A model generated the notes under the pieces. That model was not told where the DNA came from and did no database searches. It saw nothing but the letters and a program-made list of their open reading frames with translations. A DNA stretch of 64,000 nucleotides from NCBI RefSeq assembly GCF_013122565.1, contig NZ_CP053258.1. The stretch is one strand, 5' to 3'. A program made the translations under genes and the position numbers. Position 1 is the stretch's first letter, and each line of letters opens with the position of its first letter. Below are positions 48,354 through 48,448 of the stretch, piece after piece. Source of the DNA: Escherichia coli (lineage in GTDB: Bacteria; Pseudomonadota; Gammaproteobacteria; Enterobacterales; Enterobacteriaceae).

Positions 48354-48423
48354 AGATGTTGTTCTGCCAATGTTATGCCGCTGCACCCTCAACTTACGTT
48401 ATCCCAACTTGTGACTGTTATTC

Positions 48424-48448
48424 GGCGCTCCACGGAGCGCCTTTTTTT
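48424..48448 (+). terminator. intrinsic terminator after malG, overlapping the psiE stop codon
   Basis: ggcgctcc-ac-ggagcgcc hairpin followed by a T7 run. Confidence 0.6.

Follow-up and report, generated by a model that had tools for sequence, protein, structure and literature searches.

A natural xylE-less allele of the malG-psiE interval in Escherichia coli and its malG 3'UTR

Introduction

Xylose enters Escherichia coli by two routes, the low-affinity proton symporter XylE and the high-affinity ABC transporter XylFGH. In K-12-type genomes, xylE lies between malG, the last gene of malEFG, and psiE. A presence/absence polymorphism of xylE, the same as the one considered here, has been documented by Gonzalez-Alba et al. 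(2019, PMC6896753), who list the gene as "gained" on the E/B1/A branch of E. coli and thus infer gain. The neighboring malG is also the source of a regulatory transcript: MalH is a 104-nt sRNA from the malG 3'UTR in E. coli K-12 (Iosub et al. 2020, PMC8081044). Our literature search found no paper on xylE, malG, and psiE together. Here, we describe the malG-psiE interval in a 64-kb stretch of E. coli DNA (64,000 nucleotides of contig NZ_CP053258.1, assembly GCF_013122565.1; hereafter the window) and compare it with the corresponding loci of other E. coli genomes and of related species.

Results

The genes around the junction are arranged in the order malK (-); malE, malF, and malG (+); psiE (-); a 92-aa open reading frame (+), which we take to be yjbT of K-12; and yjbH, yjbG, yjbF, and yjbE (-). 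NCBIfam profile searches matched both genes that bound the interval over the full length of the model and above its cutoff (609.9 bits versus 261 for MalG and 288.9 bits versus 222 for PsiE; Table 1). The MalG protein is 100% identical to the annotated MalG of the K-12-type, HH97, and ATCC 11775 records, and psiE, read from its annotated start, encodes a protein of 136 aa that is 100% identical to K-12 PsiE by tblastn. A preliminary description of this DNA had placed the two genes about 90 bp apart and had regarded xylE as apparently missing, with no remnant reading frame. The distance from the malG stop to the psiE stop is exactly 93 bp (48354-48446), and this stretch holds no open reading frames other than two mechanical ones (41 and 44 aa), both antisense and running into psiE. 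Searches of the 64-kb window with K-12 XylE (tblastn; best E = 0.27) and with the K-12 xylE segment (blastn, 1,795-bp query; best E = 0.096) returned no significant match, which, together with the comparison to K-12 described below, bears out the absence of xylE from this locus.

Table 1 Features of the malG-psiE junction in the window, with the direct repeat of the Klebsiella oxytoca locus
Feature	Position	Strand	Basis or remark
malG (last gene of malEFG; maltose ABC transporter permease)	47463-48353	+	ORF; NCBIfam equivalog NF008231
malG 3' end and 3'UTR, MalH sRNA region	48343-48446	+	5' coordinate approximate, inferred from the published 104-nt length
Conserved block ATGCCRCTGC	48375-48384	+	Kept across genera
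Conserved block CCCTCAAC	48386-48393	+	Kept across genera
Conserved block CCCAACTTGTGACTGTT	48403-48419	+	Kept across genera
Predicted intrinsic-terminator hairpin of malEFG, GGCGCTC-CACG-GAGCGCC	48424-48441	+	Terminator scan
T7 run, predicted terminator U-tract	48442-48448	+	Base-by-base comparison; also the site of the extra segment in K-12
psiE (phosphate-starvation-inducible inner-membrane protein)	48447-48857	-	ORF; NCBIfam equivalog NF002767; convergent with malG
K. oxytoca repeat copies CTGAAACGCGAGTAA / CTGAAACGCGAATAA (15 nt)	7396-7411, about 9308-9322		Positions in locus L069

As reference for the K-12-type locus (L001), we used the annotated record NZ_CP188159.1, which matches K-12 strain C3026 at 100% identity across the xylE segment. 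In this record, the order is malG, xylE, psiE, with 1,890 bp between malG and psiE; the K-12 map given in the preliminary description is correct, and of the three readings offered there (a clean deletion, a gene never acquired, or a mistaken map), the last, with xylE elsewhere in K-12 and malG and psiE adjacent everywhere, is ruled out by the annotated gene order. Alignment of the junction with K-12, the check which that description had proposed, resolved the difference into one clean indel. The two loci are collinear through malG, the 3'UTR, the terminator, and psiE, with 100% identity from the malG 3' end to the terminator T-run and 98.8% identity in psiE. Between the T-run and the psiE stop, the K-12-type locus carries an extra 1,797 bp, and identity resumes at the psiE stop.

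The 1,797-bp segment comprises 276 bp of xylE upstream and promoter region, xylE itself, which encodes 491 aa, and another hairpin (CAGCACGCCG...CGGCGTGCTG) whose T5 run adjoins the psiE stop. With the boundaries marked by a slash, its left end reads ...GAGCGCC-T7/CTTTCG and its right end ...GTGCTGAC-T5/ACTCCCGC; base-by-base comparison fixes the end of the indel only to within a 5-T microhomology. A complete transcription unit with a T-run on either side, the indel contains only xylE, its promoter, and its terminator; it is flanked only by the T-runs, and no hallmarks of a mobile element (integrase or transposase, tRNA or att site, inverted repeats) were found in or at it. The window carries a natural xylE-less allele of the malG-psiE interval.

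A single hairpin terminator was all that the preliminary description had seen between the two stops. The terminator scan indeed found one terminator-like site in the 93-bp gap, compared with a mean of 0.2 in shuffled sequence, and this site has a 7-pair stem (6 G-C), a 4-nt loop, and a T7 run, which overlaps the psiE stop codon by its last two T (the first two bases of that codon as read on the (+) strand); the gap as a whole is, however, a conserved 3'UTR and so more than a terminator. Positions 48330-48448 are 100% identical to positions 3931-4049 of the K-12-type locus in a base-by-base comparison. Since this identity extends across the MalH region, MalH is most likely encoded here as well, at roughly the position listed in Table 1; ompC and ompA, the genes with which its seed would pair, lie beyond the window. 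Judged from its sequence, the 93-bp gap is an intact malG 3'UTR from which the MalH sRNA would be made, with the predicted intrinsic terminator of malEFG at its end.

The malG 3'UTR blocks ATGCCRCTGC, CCCTCAAC, and CAACTTGTGACTGT are common to Escherichia, Citrobacter, Enterobacter, Kluyvera, Trabulsiella, Klebsiella, and others, and across those genera the blocks are followed by the hairpin and then by a T-run that usually touches the psiE stop. The hairpin appears in both the minimum-free-energy and the centroid folds and is kept, with eight predicted pairs, in an alignment of 17 species, where it shows covariation: two pairs change on both sides (CG<->GC and UA<->CG), in 5 sequences. A scan of positions 47900-49100 at E<=1 found no Rfam family for the malG 3'UTR or MalH. 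On the psiE strand, the malEFG hairpin is followed by GAAUAACAG and has no U-tract, so that read-through from psiE would run antisense to MalH in the window allele. The K-12-type locus has the same weakness for the psiE strand at the xylE terminator; there, the xylE promoter comes next after the MalH terminator, whereas in the window this terminator is directly convergent with psiE.

The contiguous xylE-less junction is present in 33% of the complete E. coli genomes that have the locus (1,786/5,425), and the xylE segment in 3,639 of 5,426, so that the two groups (1,786 + 3,639) account for all 5,425 genomes with the locus. Because the two sets are complementary, the xylE-less E. coli genomes lack xylE elsewhere too, at the sensitivity of megablast. 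The allele of the window is a common natural variant, and the finding is real, ordinary, and already documented. Its 93-bp junction with the T7 run is identical to those of the xylE-less type strain ATCC 11775 (NZ_CP033092.2), PCN033, and HH97, and its flanks are about 97.6-99.2% identical to theirs. We take PCN033 to be a phylogroup D strain and ATCC 11775 a phylogroup B2 strain.

Partial xylE segments occur in 13 E. coli genomes. The segment is interrupted by IS1 in E. coli LAU-OXA. At the PCN061 locus, IS1A sits at the expected start of xylE with pgi directly after it, and xylE, psiE, yjbT, and yjbH-yjbE are deleted.

The nearest of the 5,426 complete E. coli genomes is ~98.5% identical to the window over 10-16 kb (positions 40000-64000 tested). 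HH97 and HH45 were tried as close relatives, and neither is close. The malEFG region of the window is K-12-like (1-10 SNPs per 500 bp) and the psiE-yjbT spacer is B2-like, and the source of the window looks like a deep-branching or mosaic lineage of E. coli. In the psiE-yjbT spacer (48926-48999 in the window), K-12 and HH97 have ~55 bp of extra sequence that is missing from the window and ATCC 11775. By eye, this extra sequence is REP-like, with GCCGGATAAG motifs, and a 144-bp hypothetical open reading frame is annotated over it in K-12 and HH97.

Beyond E. coli, we scanned species-representative genomes for PsiE and covered 80 of 189 loci; E. fergusonii, E. marmotae, E. ruysiae, the E. coli representative, and Salmonella lie outside these 80. 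Among them, direct adjacency of malG and psiE with a gap of ~80-220 bp is the rule. A clean xylE-less junction was found in all four non-coli Escherichia sampled (E. albertii, E. whittamii, sp. E1V33, and sp. MOD1-EC7003) and in at least about 60 other Enterobacteriaceae species. Among the loci listed, xylE occupies the site in part of E. coli, most of the Citrobacter freundii complex, Citrobacter sedlakii, and K. oxytoca. In C. sedlakii, ~4.9 kb of extra sequence, room for several genes, separates xylE from psiE, unlike at the other xylE-positive loci.

Some Salmonella enterica also have xylE between malG and psiE, as seen at locus L084 (CP022117.1; 5658-7524), which was reached through a member of the XylE cluster and thus outside the PsiE scan; its XylE shares 92% identity with the K-12 protein. 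Another XylE, of 81% identity, is on record for serovar Choleraesuis. The right boundary of the Salmonella segment has no T-run.

In K. oxytoca, a 15-nt stretch of the psiE 3' end recurs as an imperfect direct repeat on the two sides of the xylE segment (Table 1); the junction is plain in the sister species K. michiganensis and K. grimontii. The duplicate looks like an insertion footprint. A clustered recombination tract in K. oxytoca psiE was considered and rejected, as the differences are evenly spread. The K. oxytoca locus also contains ~160 nt of unmatched sequence and, just after malG, what by eye is an ERIC-type repeat. Gaps of 0.5-4.7 kb with other, unrelated sequence occur between malG and psiE in a few xylE-less species (Citrobacter sp. 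18056, RIT691, Escherichia sp. ESNIH1, and Pseudescherichia vulneris). Occupancy of this kind suggests that the malG-psiE site may tolerate insertions in general.

We compared the divergence of xylE with that of its flanks, with third-position identities, which between genera fall at 55-64% and are perhaps near saturation, given in parentheses. For K-12 versus Citrobacter werkmanii, the values are 83.8% (58.6%) for xylE and 83.4% (59.1%) for malG; for K-12 versus K. oxytoca, 81.9% (55.8%) for xylE and 82.3% (56.1%) for malG; for K-12 versus Salmonella, 81.4% (56.4%) for xylE, 83.5% (62.3%) for malF, and 83.9% for malG; and for C. werkmanii versus Citrobacter gillenii, 88.7% (70.6%) for xylE and 88.5% (70.6%) for malF. 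By this measure, xylE has diverged in step with malF and malG in every pair, across Escherichia, Salmonella, Citrobacter, and Klebsiella, and the longer E. coli branch of malF and malG is generally mirrored in xylE. Because of the possible saturation, the "same age" of xylE and its flanks is weakly resolved above the genus level. In the pairs compared, xylE is never closer than its flanks, and no recent donor from another genus is visible. Nor was an import footprint found beside the segment, where the divergence between K-12 and B2 is ordinary (7-8 SNPs per 500 bp).

Several genomes look as if they had lost the segment. HH97 is without it, yet shows no SNP relative to the K-12 type in the 3 kb on the left and a single one in the 1.6 kb on the right, whereas for ATCC 11775 most 500-bp bins contain 7-26 SNPs. 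The HH97 junction is the T7 junction of the window and would be the product either of a recent scarless deletion or of a recombination patch of at most 340 bp; HH97 is the only genome with such a recent scarless loss found among ~3,640 xylE-positive E. coli genomes. In the xylE-less Citrobacter braakii ATCC 51113, the 388-bp malG-psiE gap retains four fragments of the segment that are 85-93% identical to C. werkmanii, namely the upstream region, two internal pieces of xylE, and the 3' end with the terminator. Only C. braakii has such remnants; the other large-gap xylE-less loci matched in the malG 3'UTR or in the part of the K. oxytoca spacer that by eye resembles an ERIC-type repeat. Clean xylE-less junctions are also found in Citrobacter FP75 and MGH106, which are nested among xylE-positive relatives in the malF+malG tree, and PCN061 has an IS1-associated deletion that extends from xylE through yjbE.

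Discussion

We favor loss, as the probable though by no means secure history of the site: the xylE segment would be an old resident of it in Escherichia, Salmonella, Citrobacter, and Klebsiella that has been lost repeatedly. We lean this way because xylE and its flanks codiverge, because no import footprint was seen, and because losses are observed (HH97, C. braakii). The T-runs of the two tandem terminators share 5 nt of microhomology, and recombination or slippage between them could remove the segment without a scar and would rebuild the exact junction of the window, in which the malG terminator is followed by the psiE stop. Since a deletion of this type would restore an ancestral-looking arrangement, the junction itself would be indistinguishable from one that never had xylE. 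A clean junction is no proof that xylE was never there, which is a mildly new point, and the xylE absence of the window lineage would be a loss.

Loss has a price. The clean absences in four other Escherichia species and ~60 other species would call for many independent, mostly scarless losses, and a single recent scarless loss was seen among ~3,640 xylE-positive E. coli genomes. Other observations that weigh against it are the 15-nt duplicate of K. oxytoca, whose closest relatives have the plain junction, the Salmonella right boundary without a T-run, and the perhaps saturated third positions between genera; so does the window's identity to complete E. coli genomes, at best ~98.5%, in that it ties the window to no particular lineage. 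The published gain on the E/B1/A branch (PMC6896753) likewise speaks against loss. Taken with the losses seen here, the codivergence suggests that loss is at least as likely as that gain, and both processes may occur.

A more far-reaching proposal, which we put at slightly below an even chance, is that xylE constitutes an ancient terminator-bounded single-gene module that has occupied this site since before the split of Escherichia, Salmonella, Citrobacter, and Klebsiella and has been scarlessly removed over and over by recombination between the T-runs of the two terminators or between short direct repeats. Were this true, the clean absence of xylE here and in most Enterobacteriaceae would reflect repeated loss, and the published inferences of gain on the E/B1/A branch would be reversed.

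The opposite history, in which the window lineage never acquired xylE, seems to us a serious possibility, if a distinctly weaker one. According to it, malG-psiE adjacency would be ancestral in Escherichia and the Enterobacteriaceae, and the segment would have entered the E/B1/A(/C) ancestor and, separately, some Citrobacter, Salmonella, and K. oxytoca by recombination at the conserved malG and psiE flanks. PCN033 and ATCC 11775, presumably phylogroup D and B2, respectively, are both without xylE, as this history would have it, and the clean junction in E. albertii, E. whittamii, two further Escherichia, and ~60 other species is in keeping with it, as is the target-like duplication of 15 nt in K. 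oxytoca next to sister species with the plain junction. The listing of xylE as "gained" in the EB1A lineage (PMC6896753) points in the same direction. Against it stand the flanks themselves: between genera, xylE is no closer than they are, so that no recent donor is visible; the long E. coli branch of malF and malG is mirrored in xylE; and no divergent imported tracts lie beside the segment in the comparison of K-12 with B2. Moreover, both scarless and scarred losses do occur.

That a collapsed or misjoined assembly dropped xylE from the window is extremely improbable, as 1,786 complete E. coli genomes share the identical junction, the type strain ATCC 11775 among them, and so do many other species, and as the boundaries coincide exactly with functional elements.

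Annotators can take the lack of xylE as genuine rather than erroneous, although the practical value of knowing this is small. It is a mildly new point that the seemingly "empty" gap is the MalH 3'UTR, encoding both the sRNA and a terminator. Given the two established uptake systems, a strain without xylE would be expected to depend on XylFGH for its xylose. In evolutionary terms, the point is modest: the same 1.8-kb indel is seen at a single position in each of four genera, and E. coli has had at least one recent loss, that of HH97, which appears to have left no trace, unless a recombination patch of at most 340 bp accounts for it.
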